Below, in pieces: positions 6,428 through 23,728 of a stretch of DNA of 34,247 bases. The stretch comes from Saprospiraceae bacterium (GTDB lineage: Bacteria; Bacteroidota; Bacteroidia; Chitinophagales; Saprospiraceae): the NCBI GenBank assembly GCA_020849825.1, contig JADZFP010000296.1, forward strand, positions 1 to 34,247. The letters run 5' to 3'. How positions within the stretch are numbered: position 1 is the first letter of the stretch; every line of letters begins with the position of its first letter. A model generated the notes under the pieces. It had not been told where the DNA came from. It did no database searches and was given only the letters and a program-made list of their open reading frames with translations. The position numbers and the translations under genes are program-made.

Positions 6428-6504
6428 GTAATTTTCAGATTCAAGACGGTTGTTTCCGGTAGGGGTCAAAGTGGTCGTTTAACGAACTAACTGATGTCGC
6501 CGAA

Positions 6505-6540
6505 AGCGTTTCCAGGACGTGGAAAGTCGCTTTTTTGCTT
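6505..6540 (+). terminator. Terminator/attenuator-like hairpin with a T-run inside the rpsJ-rplC spacer
   Basis: AGCGTTTCCA (6505-6514), loop GGACG, then TGGAAAGTCGCT with a 2-nt bulge, followed by TTTTTTGCTTTT. Confidence 0.4.
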
Positions 6541-6617
6541 TTCCAGCGCCTGTAAGCCGCCTTGTATTTGATGTAAAAAAATCACCAATCGTTCAACCAT
6601 AAAACATACGCCACAAC

Positions 6618-7238
6618 GTGAACGGTCTGATTGGCAAAAAAATCGGGATGACGAGCATCTATGACGCTTCAGGCAAAAATGTTGCCTGCACGATCATCGA
6701 AGCCGGTCCCTGCGTGGTGACGCAAGTGCGCACCGAAGACACGGATGGTTACGCAGCCCTCCAGCTCGCCTACGGCGAACGCAAAGTAAAAAACACGCCC
6801 GCCCCGCTGCTCGGCCACTTCGAAGCAGCCGGTACGGCGCCCAAACATCAGGTCCGCGAATTCCGCGGCATGAGCCTCAACAAAGAACTCGGCGAACTGA
6901 TCACGGTTTCCGATGTCTTCCAGGAAGGCGACAAAGTCAGCGTAGTCGGCACCTCCAAGGGTAAAGGCTTCCAGGGCGTAGTCCGCCGCCACGGTTTCGG
7001 CGGTGTCATGCAGCAGACGCACGGTCAGCACAACCGCCTCCGCGCCCCCGGTTCGCTCGGCAACTCCTCTTTCGCCGCCAAGGTGATGAAAGGGATGCGC
7101 ATGGCCGGCCAGATGGGCAATGATCGCGTCAAAGTGCGCCGCCTGCAAATTCTGAAGGTATTCCCCGATCAGAACCTGATTCTGATCAAGGGTGCGGTAC
7201 CCGGCCATAAAGGCGCTTATGTCATTATTGAAAAGTAA
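6618..7238 (+). CDS. rplC: 50S ribosomal protein L3
   Basis: 206 aa, GTG start. [15 protein letters not shown] is the typical L3 N-terminus. Confidence 0.96.
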
Positions 7239-9162: not shown

Positions 9163-9429
9163 ATGCCGCGTTCGCTCAAAAAAGGCCCTTACGTACACCA
9201 CGCACTGACGGAAAAAGTCGCTAAGGCCAAACAAAGCAACAGAAAACAGGTGATCAAAACCTGGAGCCGCGCCTCCATGATCATCCCGGATATGGTCGGC
9301 GAAACCATCGCTGTCCACAACGGCAAAACATTCATCCCGGTGTTCGTCACCGAAAATATGGTTGGCCACAAACTCGGCGAGTTCGCGCCCACGCGCAACT
9401 TCCGCGGCCACGCCGGTAACAGAAAATAA
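9163..9429 (+). CDS. rpsS: 30S ribosomal protein S19
   Basis: 88 aa with [10 protein letters not shown]...[16 protein letters not shown]. Confidence 0.97.
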
Positions 9430-9573
9430 TGTGCTAATGTGCTAATGTGATAATGTGCTAACGTGGATAATGTGAAAATTTTTCACATCCTGCACTTGAG
9501 CAAATCATCAGCATATTACCTAATTGGCACATCAGCACACTCCTAATTAGCACATTAGCACATTAGCACATTT
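9427..9573. repeat. Octamer-repeat palindromic element #1 (TAATGTGC arms / GCACATTA arms), rpsS-rplV spacer
   Basis: The left arm has 3 GTGCTAA copies and the right arm has 3 TTAGCAC copies. The arms are reverse complements. Internal mini-hairpin GTGAAAATTTTTCAC at 9472-9486. Confidence 0.9.
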
Positions 9574-9581
9574 TTAATAAA

Positions 9582-9944
9582 ATGGAAGCCGTAGCAAAAT
9601 TGCGCAACTGCCCGATGTCGCCCCGCAAAATGCGACTGGTAGTAGATAATATCCGCGGTAAAAACGTGGTGGATGCCCTTAGCATTCTCAAATATACCAA
9701 CAAGGAAGCTGCCATGTGGCTGGAGAAGCTCGTGCTGTCGGCTGTCAACAACTGGGAACAGAAATCTGACCAGGTTGGCGCAGCAGACGACTACGAACTC
9801 TACATCAAAACCGCCCACGTGGATCCGGGTGGCATTATCTACCGCTTCCTGCCCGCTCCTCAAGGCCGCGCCTATCGCGTCCGCAAGCGCCGCAATCACG
9901 TGACGCTCGTGGTCGAAAACAAAGTTCGCCTCGACGGAGAATAA
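9582..9944 (+). CDS. rplV: 50S ribosomal protein L22
   Basis: 120 aa with [26 protein letters not shown]. Correct position. Confidence 0.96.
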
Positions 9945-9994
9945 CAATAACCCCGATCCACCCTCATTCGCACACTCACTCATTCAACAATACA

Positions 9995-10897
9995 ATGGGT
10001 CAAAAAGCAAATCCGATTGGTAACCGCCTGGGCATTATCCGCGGTTGGGATTCTAACTGGTACGCCGACAAAGACTACGGTCTGAAAGTAGTAGAGGACG
10101 AAAAAATCCGCACCTACCTCCGCGCCCGTCGCCCGAAAACGGCCACCGCCGATCCCCGCGAACGCAACAAACCGATGCAAAACGGTATCAGCCGCATCGT
10201 GATCGAGCGTACCCTCAAACGCGTTACCGTCACCATCCATACCAGCCGCCCCGGTATTATCATCGGTAAAGGCGGTAAGGAGGTTGACCTTATCAAGGAA
10301 GAGCTCAAAGTGCTCACCGGCAAGGATGTCCAAATCAACATCTTTGAAATCCGCAAGCCCGAACTCGACGCCAACATCGTAGGCGAACAAATCGCCAAAC
10401 AAATCGAAGCCCGTATCAACTTCCGTCGCGCCATCAAAGGCGCCATCCAGGGCTCGATGCGCGCCGGCGCCGAAGGTATCAAGATCCGCGTAAGCGGTCG
10501 TCTCGGCGGCGCTGAAATGAGCCGTGTTGAAGAACACAAGGAAGGCCGTACGCCGCTCCATACGTTCCGTGCCGACATTGATTATGCACTTGCCGAAGCA
10601 CAAACGGTGTATGGCAAAATCGGTATCAAAGTTTGGCTCTTCAAAGGCGAAGTGCTCCAAAAACGCGAACTCACTCCTTTCGCAGCAGCCGAAGGCACCG
10701 ATCGTGGTGACCGCGGTGGCGATCGCGGCGGAGATCGTCGCGGCGGCGGTGAACGCCGTGGCGGTGGCGAACGCGGAGATCGTGGCGAACGCGGTGAACG
10801 CGGAGATCGTCGCGGTGGCGGCGGTGGTGATCGTCGCGGTGGCGGCGGCGGTGGAGATCGCCGCGGCGGCGGTGGCGGTGGCAATCGCCGGCGCTAA
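9995..10897 (+). CDS. rpsC: 30S ribosomal protein S3 with a roughly 70-aa C-terminal RGG/GDR repeat tail
   Basis: 300 aa. [16 protein letters not shown]-like [18 protein letters not shown] and RADIDYA motifs. Tail is [63 protein letters not shown]. Confidence 0.96.
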
Positions 10898-10930: not shown

Positions 10931-10938
10931 TAACTTTG
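10931..10938 (+). promoter_or_regulatory. Candidate internal -7 box TAACTTTG in the 115-nt rpsC-rplP spacer
   Basis: Exact TAnnTTTG match 75 nt upstream of the rplP ATG. No clear -33 TTTG. Confidence 0.3.
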
Positions 10939-11012
10939 CAGCCCTTTACGCCGCAATACAGCAAGAGAAATAAATAAAATATTGATTGACAGGCTATTAA
11001 ATCATAGATACG

Positions 11013-11432: not shown

Positions 11433-11476
11433 GCCCGATCGCCCTCATTCGCTCATTCGCACACCGCTCATTCAAT

Positions 11477-11737: not shown

Positions 11738-11782
11738 TCAACCTATTCGCCCATACGCATTACCGCACATCGCACCAAAATA

Positions 11783-15137: not shown

Positions 15138-15198
15138 TCCGCTTCGTATAGTACAATTATCGCACAATCATTCAATCGCCCATTCGCACATTTATACA

Positions 15199-15717
15199 AT
15201 GGCACGGCAAGAAGAAAATAAATCCCGCACCTCTGATTCCGAATTCAAGGAGAAACTCGTCTCCCTCAACCGCGTCGCCAAAGTGACCAAAGGCGGTCGT
15301 ACGTTCAGCTTCGCCGCTGTTGTGGTTGTGGGCGACGGCAAAGGCACCGTGGGCCATGGCCTCGGCAAAGCCCGCGAGGTCTCCGAAGCCATCGGCAAGG
15401 CCGTCAAAGACGCCGAAAAGAATCTCGTGAAAGTGCCGCTCCACAAAGGTACTATCCCGCACGAGGCGTTTGGTAAATTTGACGCCGGCCGCGTACTGAT
15501 CAAACCTGCCGCTCACGGTACGGGGGTGATTGCCGGCGGCGCTATGCGTGCCGTGCTCGAAATGGCCGGCGTACAAGACGTGTTGGCCAAGTCGCAAGGC
15601 TCCTCCAACCCGCACAACGTCGTCAAGGCTACCATTGCCGCGCTCCGCAGCCTGCGCAGCCCGGTTGAAGTAGCCCGCCAGCGCGGTATTTCGCTCGAAA
15701 AAATCTTCAACGGATAA
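15199..15717 (+). CDS. rpsE: 30S ribosomal protein S5
   Basis: The track ORF 15052..15717 overlaps rplR. The internal ATG 15199 gives [38 protein letters not shown], the canonical S5 region (172 aa). Confidence 0.95.
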
Positions 15718-15802
15718 TTTTGTTGTTCGCTGCTGGTTGTTCGTTGCCTGCTCTTTGCACAACAAATAACCAACAACGGCCAACGCACAACGAACAACGA
15801 AC
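15718..15802. repeat. Imperfect palindromic spacer built from TTGTTCG / CGAACAA short repeats (rpsE-rpmD junction)
   Basis: The left half GTTGTTCGCTGCTGGTTGTTCGTTG is complementary to the right half CAACGCACAACGAACAACGAAC. For example, GGTTGTTCGTTG pairs with CAACGAACAAC. Confidence 0.7.
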
Positions 15803-15982
15803 ATGAGCAAAGTAAAAATTACCTTGGTCAAAAGTCCGATTGACAAAACCAAGCGCCAGAAAGACACCCTGAAGGCTCTGGGTTTCCGCAAAGTCAATCA
15901 AACAGTTGAACACGAGGGCAATCCCCAGATTATGGGTATGGTCCGGGTTGTACAACACCTCGTTCAGGTTGAAAACGCCTGA
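15803..15982 (+). CDS. rpmD: 50S ribosomal protein L30
   Basis: 59 aa, below the ORF-track cutoff and read directly: [59 protein letters not shown]. Lies between S5 and L15. Confidence 0.93.
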
Positions 15983-18796: not shown

Positions 18797-18803
18797 AACT
18801 TTG
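18796..18803 (+). promoter_or_regulatory. Near-consensus -7 box GAACTTTG upstream of infA
   Basis: 7 of 8 matches to TAnnTTTG. Embedded in AACTTTGCAGCCC, which also occurs at the rplP candidate box. Confidence 0.2.
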
Positions 18804-18829
18804 CAGCCCAAAATTCGGAAGGGCTTTTT

Positions 18830-19645: not shown

Positions 19646-19649
19646 TAAT

Positions 19650-19800
19650 TAATGTGCTAATGTGCTAATGAGATAATGTGCCAATTAAGAGAGCACTTAT
19701 CTGGTTGGTATTCTTAGCCGGTTCAAATAGCCATTAGCACATTAACTAATTAGCATATTATCTAATTAGCACATTGTCAAATTAGCACATTAGCACATTA
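19650..19800. repeat. Octamer-repeat palindromic element #2, rpsM-rpsK spacer
   Basis: 2 GTGCTAA copies on the left and 4 TTAGCAC copies on the right. The central core at 19691-19723 is shared with element #3. Confidence 0.9.
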
Positions 19801-19805
19801 ACAAT

Positions 19806-20198
19806 ATGGCCAAGGGAGCTAGCAAAAAAGTTGTCAAGCGCAAGGTTAAAGTGACGCCGGAAGGCCTCGTCTATATCCACGCCAGCTTCAACAACATCAT
19901 TATCTCGATCACCAACAAGCAAGGCGAAGTGGTATCCTGGGCATCGGCCGGCAAAGCCGGATTCCGCGGCTCGAAGAAAAATACCCCTTACGCTGCACAA
20001 ATCGCTGCCAACGACGCCGCAAAGACGGCTTTCGAGGCAGGCATTCGCGCCGCCGAGGTGTTCGTTAAAGGACCGGGTTCGGGTCGCGAGGCTGCTATTC
20101 GCGCCATCGACCAGTCGGGTATCAAAGTCATGATCATCAACGACGTGACCCCCATGCCCCACAACGGTTGCCGTCCGCCCAAACGCCGCCGCGTTTAA
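19806..20198 (+). CDS. rpsK: 30S ribosomal protein S11
   Basis: 130 aa with [19 protein letters not shown]...[14 protein letters not shown]...[13 protein letters not shown]. Confidence 0.97.
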
Positions 20199-20200
20199 GG

Positions 20201-20390
20201 AATGCGCTAATTAGTTAATGTGCTAATGTGCTAATTAGATAATGTGCTAATTATGAGCGCTTATCAGGTTGGTATTCTTAGCCGGTTTAACTAATCTATT
20301 AGCACATCAATACATTAGCACATTGACTAATTAGCACATTAGCCCCATTACCGAATTAGCACATTAGCACATTATCAAATCAGCACATTA
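20201..20390. repeat. Octamer-repeat palindromic element #3, rpsK-rpsD spacer
   Basis: 3 GTGCTAA copies on the left and 5 TTAGCAC copies on the right. The core at 20255-20287 matches element #2 at 30 of 33 positions. Confidence 0.9.
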
Positions 20391-20396
20391 TCAATA

Positions 20397-21011
20397 ATGG
20401 CTCGTTATACTGGACCAACGACAAAAAAAGCCCGCACGTTCGGCGATTCAATCTACGGCTACGACAAATATTTCGAACGTCGTAAGTATCCGCCCGGACA
20501 GCATGGCCAGGCCCGCAAGAAAAAAGCGGCCTCCAACTATGCTGTGCAGCTGTCTGAAAAACAAAAAGCCAAGTACACCTACGGTGTGCTCGAGCGTCAG
20601 TTCCGCAAGACCTTTCACGACGCCACGCGCCGCCACGGCGTTACCGGCGAAGTGTTGCTCCAACTGCTGGAAGCACGCCTCGACAACACGGTGTACCGCC
20701 TCGGCATCTCCCCGACCCGGCGCGGCGCCCGTCAGTTGGTTGGCCACCGCCACGTGACCGTCAACGGTAAAGTGGTCAATATCCCGTCCTATTCGCTGAA
20801 GCCCGGCGATGTGGTGGCCGTTCGCGGTCGCTCCAAGGGTCTGGAAGTTGTCACTACCCACGTGGGCGCCAAAACCAGCGATGTGCGCAAATTCGGCTGG
20901 CTGGAATGGAACCCCGATAAAATGTCTGGTATCTTCCTGGCCTACCCGCAACGGGATCAGATTCCGGAGAAAATCAACGAACAGCTGATCGTCGAGTTGT
21001 ACTCGAAATAA
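20397..21011 (+). CDS. rpsD: 30S ribosomal protein S4
   Basis: 204 aa with [13 protein letters not shown] and an S4 RNA-binding domain ([13 protein letters not shown]...[14 protein letters not shown]). Confidence 0.97.
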
Positions 21012-21164
21012 GCCTGATGATAGCGGAAAAGGTTGGCGCTCCCGGTGGGACGTCAACCATTTCCGCGTTTTTGCGTTTAAACCCGCCGCCCAAAACTAAA
21101 CGCGACAATCCCCGAATCTTCAATTGCTTTTTCCCACCTCACTCAATTCGGAGCAATCCATACC

Positions 21165-22163: not shown

Positions 22164-22164
22164 G

Positions 22165-22316
22165 TTAATGTGCTAATTAGTTAATGTGCTAATGTGCTAA
22201 TGACAAGGTTGTGTGCTATTTTTTCGAAACATGAGAAAAGCACTCAGCGCCCCGGAAAAGTCCACATCCGCCCATTAGCACATTGGCATATTAACCAATT
22301 AGCACATTAACACACA
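22165..22316. repeat. Octamer-repeat palindromic element #4, rpoA-rplQ spacer
   Basis: 3 GTGCTAA copies on the left and 2 TTAGCAC copies on the right. It has its own core, including the hairpin GTGCTATTTTTTC...GAGAAAAGCAC. Confidence 0.85.
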
Positions 22317-22394
22317 TTTTTTAACAAGTGCAGTAACCGTCGAGCGTCTTCAAGGGCTTGCCCCGGTGCTGCCACCTAAACTTAGGTACATCTC

Positions 22395-23114
22395 ATGCGA
22401 CACGGAGATAAAGTAAACAACCTCGGACGCACCGCGTCCCACCGCCGCGCCCTGCTGGCCAACCTGGCAAACGCCCTCATCGAACACAAACGCATCAACA
22501 CCACCCTGGCCAAGGCCAAAGCCCTGCGCCGCTACGTGGAGCCTCTGGTGACCAAAGCCAAAGACAATACCACCCACTCCCGCCGCGTGGTATTCAGCTA
22601 CCTGCAGAACAAAGACGCCGTCAAGGAACTGTTCAGCACCGTTGCCGCCAAAATCGGCGACCGCCCGGGCGGTTACGTTCGCATCATCAAACTCGGCTTC
22701 CGCCGGGGCGACGGCGCCGAAGTAGCCATGATCGAGTTTGTGGATTTCAACGAAACCTACAACCCGAAAGCCGGTAAAGAAGCCACGAAGAAGAAAACCC
22801 GTCGCGGCAACAAAAAGCCCACGGAATCCAAAGTCAGCGCCAAAGTAACCGAAGCCAAAGCCGCCGCTGCCGCTGCGCCGGTCGTGGAGGAAGAAGTAGC
22901 CCCGGTCGTTGAAGAAACCGTGGCCGCTATCGAGGAAACGCCTGTTGTGGAAGAAACGGTTGCTGCTGTTGAAGAAACCGCACCCGTTGTAGAAGAAACC
23001 GTAGCCGCCGTGGAAGAAACGGTTGCTGCTGTTGAAGAAGCGCCCGCCGCCGAGCCCGAGGCCCCCGCTGCCGAAGAAACGACGGAAGAAGAAAAGAAAG
23101 ACGAAGAAGCCTGA
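22395..23114 (+). CDS. rplQ: 50S ribosomal protein L17 with a roughly 115-aa Lys-rich then acidic Ala/Val/Glu/Thr repeat tail
   Basis: 239 aa. [21 protein letters not shown] is the canonical start. The tail carries repeated [12 protein letters not shown] units. Confidence 0.95.
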
Positions 23115-23148
23115 TTTCCCGGGTCAATCGATTTCAAGATACCATGCG

Positions 23149-23187
23149 AGAGCCGCTCCGAGTGTTCGGGGCGGCTCTTGTTGTTTG
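23149..23187 (+). terminator. Rho-independent terminator closing the ribosomal-protein cluster
   Basis: Stem AGAGCCGCTCCG / CGGGGCGGCTCT (13 bp including one G-U pair) with a 6-nt loop, then TTGTTGTTT. Confidence 0.75.
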
Positions 23188-23204
23188 GTGGACTGGAAAG
23201 GAGC

Positions 23205-23728
23205 GGGATGGGAACGCGGATGACGCGGATTTGGGCGGATGGACACGGATTTTTTACCCGCGCAGCGGTGGTGTTTTTGGACAGGATGAACAAGATTTAC
23301 AGGATCGGACAGGATTTTTTTAGGGAAAGAAGCAACACCCACCATGCCGGCGCAGCCGGCATTTATCCTGTTAATCTTGTTGATCCTGTCTAAAAAAACA
23401 GTTTGGGGTTGGACAGGATGAACAAGATTTACAGGATCTGACAGGATTTTTTTAGGAAAGAAGCAGCACCCGCCATGCCGGCGCAGCCGGCATTTATCCT
23501 GTTAATCTTGTTGATCCTGTCTAAAAAAACAGTTTGGGGTTGGACAGGATGAACAAGATTTACAGGATTGGACAGGATTTTTTTAGGAAAGAAGCAACAC
23601 CCGCCATGCCGGCGCAGCCGGCATCTATCCTGTTTATCGTGTTTATCCTGTCAAAAAAGCACCCGCGCAGCGGGTAAAAAAAATCCGTGTCCATCCGCCC
23701 CAATCCGCGTCATCCGCGTTCCCATCCC
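23205..23728. repeat. Outer inverted repeat (arms 23205-23261 and 23670-23728) enclosing a tandem hairpin array
   Basis: The reverse complement of the left arm equals the right arm except for one substitution and an A-run of 6 versus 8. A 13-nt direct repeat ACCCGCGCAGCGG lies at 23256-23268 and 23661-23673. Confidence 0.9.
23279..23652. repeat. Three tandem units of about 131 nt (starts 23279, 23411, 23542), each an internal hairpin with a GCCGGCGCAGCCGGC apex
   Basis: Units are near-identical on direct reading. The unit arms GGACAGGATGAACAAGATTTACAGGAT and ATCCTGTTAATCTTGTTGATCCTGTC are reverse complements with 2 mismatches. Confidence 0.9.

Follow-up and report, generated by a model that had tools for sequence, protein, structure and literature searches.

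A motif upstream of ribosomal protein start codons in a Saprospiraceae bacterium is the repeat unit of G-poor octamer arrays that fill intergenic space

We analysed a 34,247-nucleotide stretch of DNA from a Saprospiraceae bacterium (phylum Bacteroidota; assembly GCA_020849825.1, contig JADZFP010000296.1), hereafter called the window. Its + strand carries the complete S10-spc-alpha ribosomal protein (r-protein) cluster, which runs from rpsJ (6119) to rplQ (23114) between unrelated genes. Positions 15138-15198 are exactly the intergenic region (IGR) between rplR and rpsE, whose ATG lies at 15199, and they carry the sequence ATT[A/C]GCACA, which an initial annotation of the window had noticed shortly upstream of at least seven r-protein genes. 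We find that ATT[A/C]GCACA is the repeat unit of G-poor, 8-nt tandem arrays in IGRs and not a signal specific to r-protein genes. The arrays extend across the intergenic space as far as the gene boundaries. Ahead of start codons, the mRNA strand is almost always G-poor, with no ATG, GTG or TTG, no Shine-Dalgarno (SD)-like sequence and no self-structure, and a complementary G/T-rich array sits on or right behind the stop codon of the preceding gene. IGRs with both arrays are predicted to form a long hairpin that would loop out most of the spacer, so that stop and start would effectively be ~26 nt apart. Units and hairpins vary among close relatives, and the strongest regularity is one of strand, not of sequence. 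With a confidence of roughly 55%, we read the arrays as fast-turnover simple sequence that provides a permissive, start-codon-free and unstructured leader spacer, the excess of which would be looped out by the hairpins.

ATT[A/C]GCACA occurs 27 times in the window as compared to 0.50 copies expected from dinucleotide shuffles (largest shuffle value 4), and all 27 copies are intergenic and lie within the r-protein cluster. The bare pentamer GCACA shows no window-wide enrichment (79 vs 76 expected). In the leaders of the cluster genes (-40 to -1), it is present in 8 of 28, as compared to 1.07 expected when each leader is shuffled (0 of 2000 shuffles reach 8), and the full motif is found in 6 of these 28 leaders (0.01 expected). 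Since the leader shuffles reach far fewer copies of GCACA, the enrichment is not a product of A/C-rich leaders, which rules out an explanation that the initial annotation had raised against itself. The seven leaders quoted there (rpsE, rpsK, rplV, rpsD, rpsC, rpmC and rpsQ) all read as given, and the proximity of the motif to r-protein starts is real: an exact copy lies 8-20 nt from the ATG in five leaders and 25 nt away in rpsD, and rpsQ has a near-copy only.

9562-9570, + strand: exact motif of rplV, ending 11 nt before the ATG
9966-9974, + strand: exact motif of rpsC, 20 nt before the ATG
11455-11463, + strand: exact motif of rpmC, 13 nt before the ATG
11765-11769, + strand: GCACA within the rpsQ near-copy ATTACCGCACA
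15182-15190, + strand: exact motif of rpsE, 8 nt before the ATG
19789-19797, + strand: exact motif of rpsK, 8 nt before the ATG
20363-20371, + strand: exact motif of rpsD, 25 nt before the ATG, with the near-copy AATCAGCACA 9 nt before the ATG

All seven leaders match themselves best at a shift of 8 nt (0.43-0.64), a match that four control leaders lack. Each of them has an A at -3 (7/7), contains no more than two G within its last 20 nt and lacks ATG, GTG and TTG between -20 and -1. The main array unit is TTAGCACA, with the local variant ATTCGCMC; the octamer also appears as ATTCGCAC. According to the program TRF, the period-8 arrays in the window span 3.4-11.5 copies. They stop about 8-20 nt before the ATG, and the final stretch is one degenerate unit of 8-11 nt with an A at -3. 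Among all 30 leaders of the window, an SD-like tetramer is present in one, an A at -3 in 19 and an upstream start codon between -20 and -1 in one. The source is indeed a member of the Saprospiraceae: its RpsE is 97% identical to that of L119, a Saprospiraceae metagenome-assembled genome, and its next relatives are Saprospiraceae and Chitinophagales. The scarcity of SD-like tetramers and this placement in the Bacteroidota bear out the earlier suspicion of an organism that does not use SD pairing. The 426 loci collected for comparison (3.85 Mb) include no 16S rRNA gene.

Copies of ATTCGCACA sit in short leaders without a partner arm, namely those of rpsC, rpmC, rpsE and, loosely, rpsQ. When folded with RNAfold, these four are predicted to be less structured than their shuffles (z +0.3 to +1.5; z-scores here and below are relative to shuffled sequence).

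9945-9994, + strand: rpsC leader, ATTCGCACA at 9966-9974 followed by CTCACTCATTCAACAATACA; self-similar at period 8 and unstructured
11433-11476, + strand: rpmC leader, (CTCATTCG)n array at 11444-11473, including ATTCGCACA at 11455-11463
11738-11782, + strand: rpsQ leader, near-copy ATTACCGCACA within a weak period-8 array (shift-8 match 0.43, z +0.9)
15138-15198, + strand: rpsE leader, degenerate octamer array at 15159-15198 in register with the ATG; no hairpin

The rpsE array reads ATCGCACA ATCATTCA ATCGCCCA TTCGCACA TTTATACA and then runs into the ATG at 15199 (shift-8 self-match 0.49, z +1.5); L119 shares this period-8 layout. In the rpsC leader (shift-8 match 0.48, z +0.3), TCGCACACTCACTCATTCAA is kept in L119. 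For the rpmC leader, TRF reports period 8 with 3.9 copies (shift-8 match 0.50, z +1.1).

Copies of ATTAGCACA, on the other hand, belong to four long palindromes, located between rpsS and rplV, rpsM and rpsK, and rpsK and rpsD, and directly after rpoA. The left arm is a tandem (TAATGTGC)n array that starts in or just past the upstream stop codon, and the right arm is a (ATTAGCAC)n array that stops one degenerate unit short of the ATG in three of these palindromes. As RNA, the four palindromes are predicted to form hairpins of -55 to -95 kcal/mol (z -6.9 to -8.6), with A/T-rich stems far longer than those of typical terminators.

9427-9575, + strand: rpsS-rplV palindrome; left arm (TAATGTGC)n at 9427-9474, beginning in the rpsS stop codon
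9506-9572, + strand: right arm (ATTAGCAC)n of the same palindrome, followed by T5, AATAAA and the ATG at 9582
19646-19805, + strand: rpsM-rpsK palindrome; left arm (TAATGTGC)n at 19650-19685, right arm (ATTAGCAC)n at 19728-19800
20199-20396, + strand: rpsK-rpsD palindrome; left arm at 20201-20251, right arm (ATTAGCAC)n at 20298-20390
22164-22323, + strand: palindrome directly after the rpoA stop codon; left arm at 22164-22202, right arm at 22273-22311
15718-15803, + strand: rpsE-rpmD hairpin built from a different unit; right arm of (ACAACGA)n heptamers at 15759-15803, abutting the rpmD ATG

The rpsS-rplV element contains a 30-nt inverted repeat with 93% complementarity and a TRF period of 8, and its minimum free energy (MFE) is -55.6 kcal/mol (z -6.9). 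In the rpsM-rpsK element (MFE -58.1, z -7.0), the right arm ends in TTAGCACA TTAACAAT before the ATG at 19806; in the rpsK-rpsD element (MFE -72.0, z -7.2), it ends in TCAGCACA TTATCAAT and an A before the ATG at 20397. These two adjacent elements have the interior CTTATCWGGTTGGTATTCTTAGCCGGTT in common, and the interiors of the others are unrelated. A search with the shared interior GGTTGGTATTCTTAGCCGGTT gave no further match in 198 loci and in a metagenome collection. For the three palindromic IGRs ahead of rplV, rpsK and rpsD, base-pairing is predicted upstream of about -5 to -24. The post-rpoA palindrome, with 39-nt arms that are 92% complementary, is followed by T6 at 22318-22323 and lies 72 nt upstream of rplQ; folding the whole rpoA-rplQ region, including a second downstream structure, yields an MFE of -95.1 (z -8.6). 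A stem followed by a U-run, as in intrinsic terminators, is thus seen after rpoA (T6) and in weaker form before rplV (T5), and is missing from the rpsM-rpsK and rpsK-rpsD elements. By its sequence, the post-rpoA palindrome looks like a terminator. Finally, the heptameric rpsE-rpmD element (TRF period 7, 6.4 copies) forms an inverted repeat with a predicted MFE of -28.2 (z -2.2), of which L119 keeps the right arm and has a different left arm.

Two further regions of the window hold predicted hairpins. The rpsD-rpoA IGR (21012-21164) contains a predicted stable hairpin (GCGGAAAAGGTTGGCGCTCCCGGTGGGACGTCAACCATTTCCGC) followed by GTTTTTG, which is kept in L119 despite sequence changes inside it; its z-score is -4.05, and the same IGR has z < -3 in 31 of 54 related genomes. 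This hairpin is likely a candidate attenuator or terminator before rpoA. Downstream of rplQ (23115-23700), a 131-nt unit is repeated 2.9 times with 95% identity (TRF array 23277-23658). Each copy combines a palindrome of ATCCTGT-type short repeats (ATCCTGTTAATCTTGTTGATCCTGTC / GACAGGATGAACAAGATTTACAGGAT) with a GC-rich hairpin (GCCGGCGCAGCCGGC), and from sequence these copies are another family of putative repeat-armed hairpins.

Across relatives, the repeat format is conserved and the sequence is not. The r-proteins of L119 are 91-100% identical to those of the window, and the two clusters diverge most in the palindromic IGRs. The 152-nt rpsS-rplV palindrome corresponds to a 19-nt spacer in L119, TAA-TTAGCACATTTTCAATAAA-ATG, which holds a single TTAGCACA unit. 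In L119, rpsM-rpsK has the right-arm array only, and rpoA is followed by a hairpin of unrelated sequence and then T6 at the corresponding place. No target-site duplication is recognisable at the palindromes in this comparison. In a metagenome contig with an identical rpsS 3' end, a palindrome made of the 9-mer CATTGACCA occupies the rpsS-rplV position. Together with the shift-8 self-match in all seven leaders, the single-unit spacer of L119 upholds the proposed tie between short leaders and long palindromes at the level of a period-8 repeat format. L119 additionally carries an 85-nt insert in its rpsQ-rplN IGR (~6900-6985), which is not a tandem-repeat palindrome; the window spacer at this site measures only 6 nt.

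More distant Saprospiraceae have other units in the orthologous leaders, that is CACATTGAC, AATCGTA, GTCCAAC, ATCCAGC, AAACACT and TAACTCA. The proposal of (A/C)GCACA(T/C) as a functional element of highly expressed genes is not supported by this finding, as orthologous leaders carry unrelated G-poor 7-8-mers. For a wider view, we used 80 related r-protein loci, which were picked by RpsE similarity and therefore without bias towards the motif. In their leaders, GCACA is concentrated in few genomes and only 1.7-fold enriched (rank 61 among 1023 pentamers). The positional enrichment of GCACA at starts that had been anticipated holds for the leaders of the window and is weak in the related clusters.

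The same 80 loci, with the window added for TRF, define the general class to which the arrays belong. Among intergenic tandem repeats, period 7 (120 arrays) and period 8 (60 arrays) dominate, followed by 14 and 16, whereas tandem repeats within coding sequences have periods that are multiples of 3. The repeat units are very diverse among these loci. The 103 start-proximal arrays, located at most 25 nt upstream of a start, have a sense-strand composition of A.43, C.26, G.05 and T.25, with C exceeding G in 92 and G exceeding C in 4. The 81 stop-proximal arrays mirror them: G exceeds C in 61 and C exceeds G in 17. ATG, GTG and TTG occur in start-proximal arrays at 1.3, 0.3 and 2.3 per kb, and 91% of these arrays have none of the three, as compared to 43 ATG per kb in stop-proximal arrays. 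Among the long IGRs of related clusters, 30% have z < -3. In such strongly structured IGRs, the median gaps flanking the main predicted stem are 4 nt on the stop-codon side and 15 nt on the AUG side, so that the unpaired stop-to-start distance is 26 nt as compared to a real IGR length of 111 nt. This effective distance is about the length of hairpin-free IGRs. These numbers rely on z-scores and stem-tail lengths; a first criterion based on 'bridging hairpins' was dropped as non-discriminating (332 observed vs 277 in shuffled IGRs). A generic scan for sigma-70 promoters and terminators revealed no enrichment over shuffles, the method being ill-suited to Bacteroidota promoters.

One particular unit reaches far beyond r-protein genes. 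We scanned 185,579 species genomes (596 Gb) with four exact tandem copies, (TTAGCACA)x4, a 32-nt query for which essentially no chance matches are estimated. It replaced an earlier 17-mer scan that is weak alone, with ~70 chance matches expected in 596 Gb. The array was detected in more than 116 loci, and among the matches listed nearly all come from Bacteroidota, spread over numerous orders and families (among them Bacteroidales, Chitinophagaceae, Saprospiraceae, Flavobacteriales and Cytophagales-type families); Ignavibacteria and Kapaibacteria are also represented. Of the first 118 TTAGCACA array loci, only 2 fall within r-protein clusters, and the downstream genes are ordinary and metabolic, e.g. 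those for 6-phosphogluconate dehydrogenase, nuoJ, atpF and aldehyde dehydrogenase. The idea of a leader specific to highly expressed genes finds no support in these numbers. Likewise, no gene family (transposase, reverse transcriptase or RNA-binding protein) recurs beside the arrays, the largest cluster comprising 5 of 239 flanking open reading frames (ORFs).

Position and orientation relative to genes were tallied in 225 loci. Before start codons the arrays read TTAGCACA, and directly after stop codons they read TGTGCTAA. That is, arrays at most 60 nt from a start have TTAGCAC in sense rather than reverse orientation in a ratio of 67:18, and those at most 60 nt from a stop have GTGCTAA in sense vs reverse orientation at 114:40. 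Spacing between the last TTAGCAC and the ATG peaks sharply at 9 nt, and the junction ATTAACAAT recurs in two unrelated genomes (L064 and L258) and at rpsK in the window. About 28% of the arms are paired with an inverted partner and 71% are single; single arms also follow the strand rule relative to genes. Paired arms are arranged as GTGCTAA..TTAGCAC in 63 cases vs 3 inside-out. The palindromes fall into co-directional, convergent and divergent gene pairs at 36/12/5, roughly in proportion to the background of 70%, 16% and 14%. Stop-abutting arrays outnumber start-abutting ones, and within the unit the single G is most often substituted, changes to G are rare, and C5, A8 and T1 vary least. Both the preference for stops and the variability of the G tell against a leader element with a GCACA core.

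Very often the array itself supplies the stop codon with its TAA, so that the protein ends in Met-Cys. In five of the loci (L039, L013, L257, L203 and L227), (TAATGTGC)n overlaps the gene end and the ORF stops within the first unit, ATG TGC TAA; Met-Cys-stop is a recurrent, artificial-looking C-terminus in Bacteroidota gene calls. Some phages carry the arrays as well: seven IMG/VR viral contigs (L427-L433) contain at least three exact TTAGCACA units each, arranged alike next to gene starts. Several of these contigs have the full GTGCTAA..TTAGCAC palindrome, and three share the short loop TGAGTGGCGCAGCCATTAGC. The L427 palindrome stops 9 nt short of a gene start (TTAGCAC ATTAACTCT ATG), and in L428, L429 and L433 the arm lies ~11 nt before the start.

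As the strand next to starts is G-poor, start-free and unfolded, we read the arrays as a permissive spacer. They would originate and turn over via slippage, with palindromes arising via inverted duplication, and selection would tolerate only the orientation that keeps the initiation region unfolded and without competing start codons. SD-independent Bacteroidia ribosomes would need such an unstructured, start-free region, and the final unit may be remodelled into the A-rich context at -1 to -8. The motif would then act as a landing-pad spacer and not as a sequence-specific enhancer. In a secondary role, the hairpins may be intercistronic or 3' stem-loops that draw the stop codon towards the next start; those with a trailing U-run, such as the one after rpoA, may attenuate transcription or make the upstream mRNA more stable. 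Given its U-run and its structural counterpart in L119, the post-rpoA hairpin probably does attenuate transcription or protect the 3' end. Selection for initiation is thus inferred from the pattern, and coupling or attenuation from the hairpins.

Several points weigh against the permissive spacer. The exact octamer TTAGCACA recurs throughout the phylum, which a role of composition only does not predict and which hints at a sequence-specific factor or horizontal spread. Moreover, the units are not all G-free, TTAGCACA retaining one G. In two window elements the 3' hairpin arm is predicted to be paired up to 5-9 nt before the AUG, which should hinder initiation. The distribution of palindromes over co-directional, convergent and divergent pairs (36, 12 and 5) is about that of the background, so that translational coupling is not a general role. 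Lastly, genes outside the window are crude ORF calls, which makes distances to their start codons approximate.

The recurrence of one exact octamer raises the alternative of a sequence-specific cis element, in which tandem UUAGCACA units offer multivalent sites for a Bacteroidota factor (bS1, a cold-shock protein (Csp) or a protein with an RNA recognition motif (RRM)) that boosts or regulates initiation. Identical octamer arrays of the same architecture in many Bacteroidota orders and viral contigs would fit this, as would the sharp array-ATG distance (mode 9 nt) with its recurring junctions and the low variability of C5, A8 and T1; an equivalent proposal exists for TAACTGA repeats (PMC4679880). 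We nevertheless consider such an element unlikely: the motif is not conserved at orthologous leaders, many unrelated units take the same positions, and TTAGCACA-type arrays are commoner at stops, mostly as the complement TGTGCTAA, with 71% single arms. In addition, the flanking genes are unrelated and ordinary, and no position varies more than the G of the proposed core. A bolder version, which we regard as speculative and equally doubtful, holds that (UUAGCACA)n and its complement form a phylum-wide cis-signal for a conserved factor (bS1 or RRM/Csp-type), with the hairpins coupling the terminating ribosome to the next start as a substitute for SD coupling on chromosomes and phages. Alternatively, the palindromes could be selfish mobile elements, similar to miniature inverted-repeat transposable elements (MITEs), foldback elements or repetitive extragenic palindromic (REP) elements, with the inverted arrays as terminal repeats, insertion at gene boundaries and the leaders as excision remnants. 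Their presence varies among genomes with 91-100% identical r-proteins, two adjacent elements share arms and interior, the arrangement GTGCTAA..TTAGCAC is consistent (63 proper vs 3 inside-out), and the elements occur in viral contigs and abut TAA stop codons. Yet the shared interior has no match elsewhere (198 loci and the metagenome collection) and other interiors are unrelated, arm lengths vary without defined ends or target-site duplications, and neither a transposase nor another family accompanies the arrays (maximum 5/239 flanking ORFs). Since most arrays are single arms that nonetheless follow the strand rule, a pattern that mobility by itself leaves unexplained, we judge this origin decidedly unlikely.

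The palindromes might instead be mainly signals for RNA 3' ends or processing (terminators, attenuators, RNase III sites or exonuclease blocks) that set cistron ratios, the start-proximal motif being the 3' half of the stem. E. coli REP elements offer an analogy for such a role, and the T6 after the post-rpoA hairpin, the L119 hairpin of different sequence with T6 at the same site, the T5 after the rplV hairpin, stems that start a median of 4 nt past stop codons and a slight excess of palindromes between convergent genes would agree with it. As a general account this is quite improbable: the rpsM-rpsK and rpsK-rpsD hairpins lack a U-run and sit within an operon with essential downstream genes, four of the seven leaders lack any stem (z +0.3 to +1.5), most arrays phylum-wide have no partner arm, and the generic terminator scan gave no enrichment. 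Very improbable, finally, is a purely mutational pattern of neutral, slippage-prone simple sequence without effect on expression. The rapid turnover and the great diversity of units point in this direction, as does Mrazek's work on long simple sequence repeats, in which, as cited in PMC4679880, 7-nt repeats are mutationally favoured in many bacteria. Under neutrality both orientations should be equally common, so that the 92:4 strand asymmetry counts against it; start codons are moreover nearly absent from arrays next to starts, and the arrays are in register with the ATG and confined to IGRs. Likenesses of the motif to the DnaA box, Chi, PUF sites and the Bacteroidota -7 promoter (TAnnTTTG) were compared by eye only and are poor matches. 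Rfam returned no family at gathering thresholds; at relaxed thresholds, only sub-threshold models of microRNA precursors overlap the palindromes, because these are long hairpins.

Some features of the window stand apart from the arrays. An identical 13-mer, AACTTTGCAGCCC, is found at 10932-10944 upstream of rplP and at 18797-18809 upstream of infA, and also in L119. The Bacteroidota -7 promoter box is TAnnTTTG, which is matched by the rplP site when read with its preceding T as TAACTTTG, and TTTGC and TTGCA are among the most enriched leader pentamers in the 80 related clusters. The AACTTTGCAGCCC sites are probably internal promoters, judging from these resemblances. RpsC (300 aa) and RplQ (239 aa) have long C-terminal extensions derived from GC-rich tandem repeats of period 24/27 and 21/42, located at the 3' ends of rpsC (10704-10890) and rplQ (22908-23108). 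They resemble low-complexity tails on ordinary r-proteins.

As to start choice and cistron coordination without SD pairing in Bacteroidota, prior work has described single-nucleotide preferences and AUG depletion. The feature seen in the window is more conspicuous, comprising whole leaders of G-poor 7-8-nt repeats in register with the ATG, and one unit, TTAGCACA, is common to the phylum and some phages, often with its complement on the preceding stop codon. As tolerated filler, the arrays would reveal that leaders must avoid G, start codons and structure; an octamer recognised by a factor would amount to a new post-transcriptional signal. In practical terms, the arrays create artificial C-terminal Met-Cys ends and complicate gene-boundary calls, and they could serve as hypervariable markers between close strains and as natural 5' leaders for Bacteroidota expression constructs.

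Among known systems, the rules of initiation in Bacteroidetes offer a functional frame. Initiation is tuned there by low structure and by A at -3, -6, -12 and -13, and AUG is under-represented near starts (Baez et al. 2019, PMC6847099); in Bacteroidia, the ribosome is reported to keep its anti-SD sequestered (PMC7797042). The seven leaders fit these Kozak-like rules with their A at -3, at most two G and no upstream start, and with z > 0 in the four short ones. Unlike that study, which gives positional preferences, we describe tandem arrays and hairpins, and A at -12/-13 is not a feature of TTAGCACA leaders.

REP elements and bacterial interspersed mosaic elements (BIMEs) are thought to stabilise mRNA or terminate transcription. 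Like them (PMC3733652), the palindromes are abundant, intergenic or intercistronic, close to stops and strain-variable. REP/BIME units are single, imperfect palindromes of 20-40 nt with a GTAG/CGTC tag and a REP-associated tyrosine transposase (RAYT), whereas the arms reported here are 30-90-nt tandem octamer arrays without a tag and without an associated gene found.

The r-protein autoregulatory leaders of Rfam are similar by location only, as there is no Rfam match and the sequence is not conserved among genomes. An IGR of another kind is found between rpsJ and rplC (6428-6617 in the window, 1287-1477 in L119, and 15 other loci), where a spacer of ~190 nt is conserved in the closer Saprospiraceae clade. 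Its invariant blocks are GTTTCCGG, GTCAAAGTG, AACTGA, CGAAAGCG, TCGCTTTT and CAATCGTTCAA; it further contains one stem that varies, with several compensatory changes, and another that resembles a terminator, AAAGCG..CGCTTT with a T-run behind it, and has no Rfam match. This spacer looks like a candidate undescribed r-protein leader or attenuator.

Heptamer repeats are the nearest relatives of the arrays. In Nostoc, 7-nt repeats are found genome-wide near starts and promoters, and their deletion alters reporter expression, no partner having been identified (Pradhan et al. 2022, 10.1101/2022.06.06.494920). The arrays differ from the cyanobacterial heptamers in phylum, period and units, and a stop-to-start hairpin architecture is not described there. 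The cyanobacterial repeats are reportedly also called short tandemly repeated repetitive (STRR) sequences, and Mazel (1990) is said to have written on them. TAACTGA direct repeats just upstream of SD-less starts, including those of r-protein operons, were described by MacGregor in 2015 in Beggiatoaceae, Cyanobacteria and five Bacteroidetes; their function is unknown, binding of bS1, Csp or CsrA was proposed, and one set in Flexibacter is reversed directly after a stop codon (PMC4679880). The arrays in the window share with these repeats the defining traits of short tandem intergenic repeats, that is at least 2-3 head-to-tail copies of a 5-11-nt unit, in excess of chance, forward orientation a few nt upstream of SD-less starts and a patchy occurrence that includes Bacteroidetes. 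Furthermore, (TAACTCA)x4 matches, among those listed, come from Bacteroidota and filamentous Cyanobacteria, which is the distribution known for TAACTGA. In the window, TAACTGA itself occurs only as singletons on the + strand, at 6488 (within the rpsJ-rplC element), 9150 (7 nt before the rpsS ATG) and 14137 (21 nt before the rplF ATG); AACTGA also precedes rplB and is present in 3 leaders as compared to 0.31 expected. The unit described here differs in being 8 nt long and of another sequence, and TTAGCACA arrays are, among the matches listed, almost confined to Bacteroidota and their relatives, the Ignavibacteria, and not found in Cyanobacteria. Moreover, ~28% of the arms form inverted pairs with predicted stop-to-start hairpins of 40-50 bp, as compared to one indirect repeat among 170 sets in the work of MacGregor. 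Our literature search found no publication on the exact repeat strings, and keyword searches gave nothing on TTAGCACA. Thus, the arrays are a new octamer version, often palindromic, of the poorly understood heptamer-repeat phenomenon.

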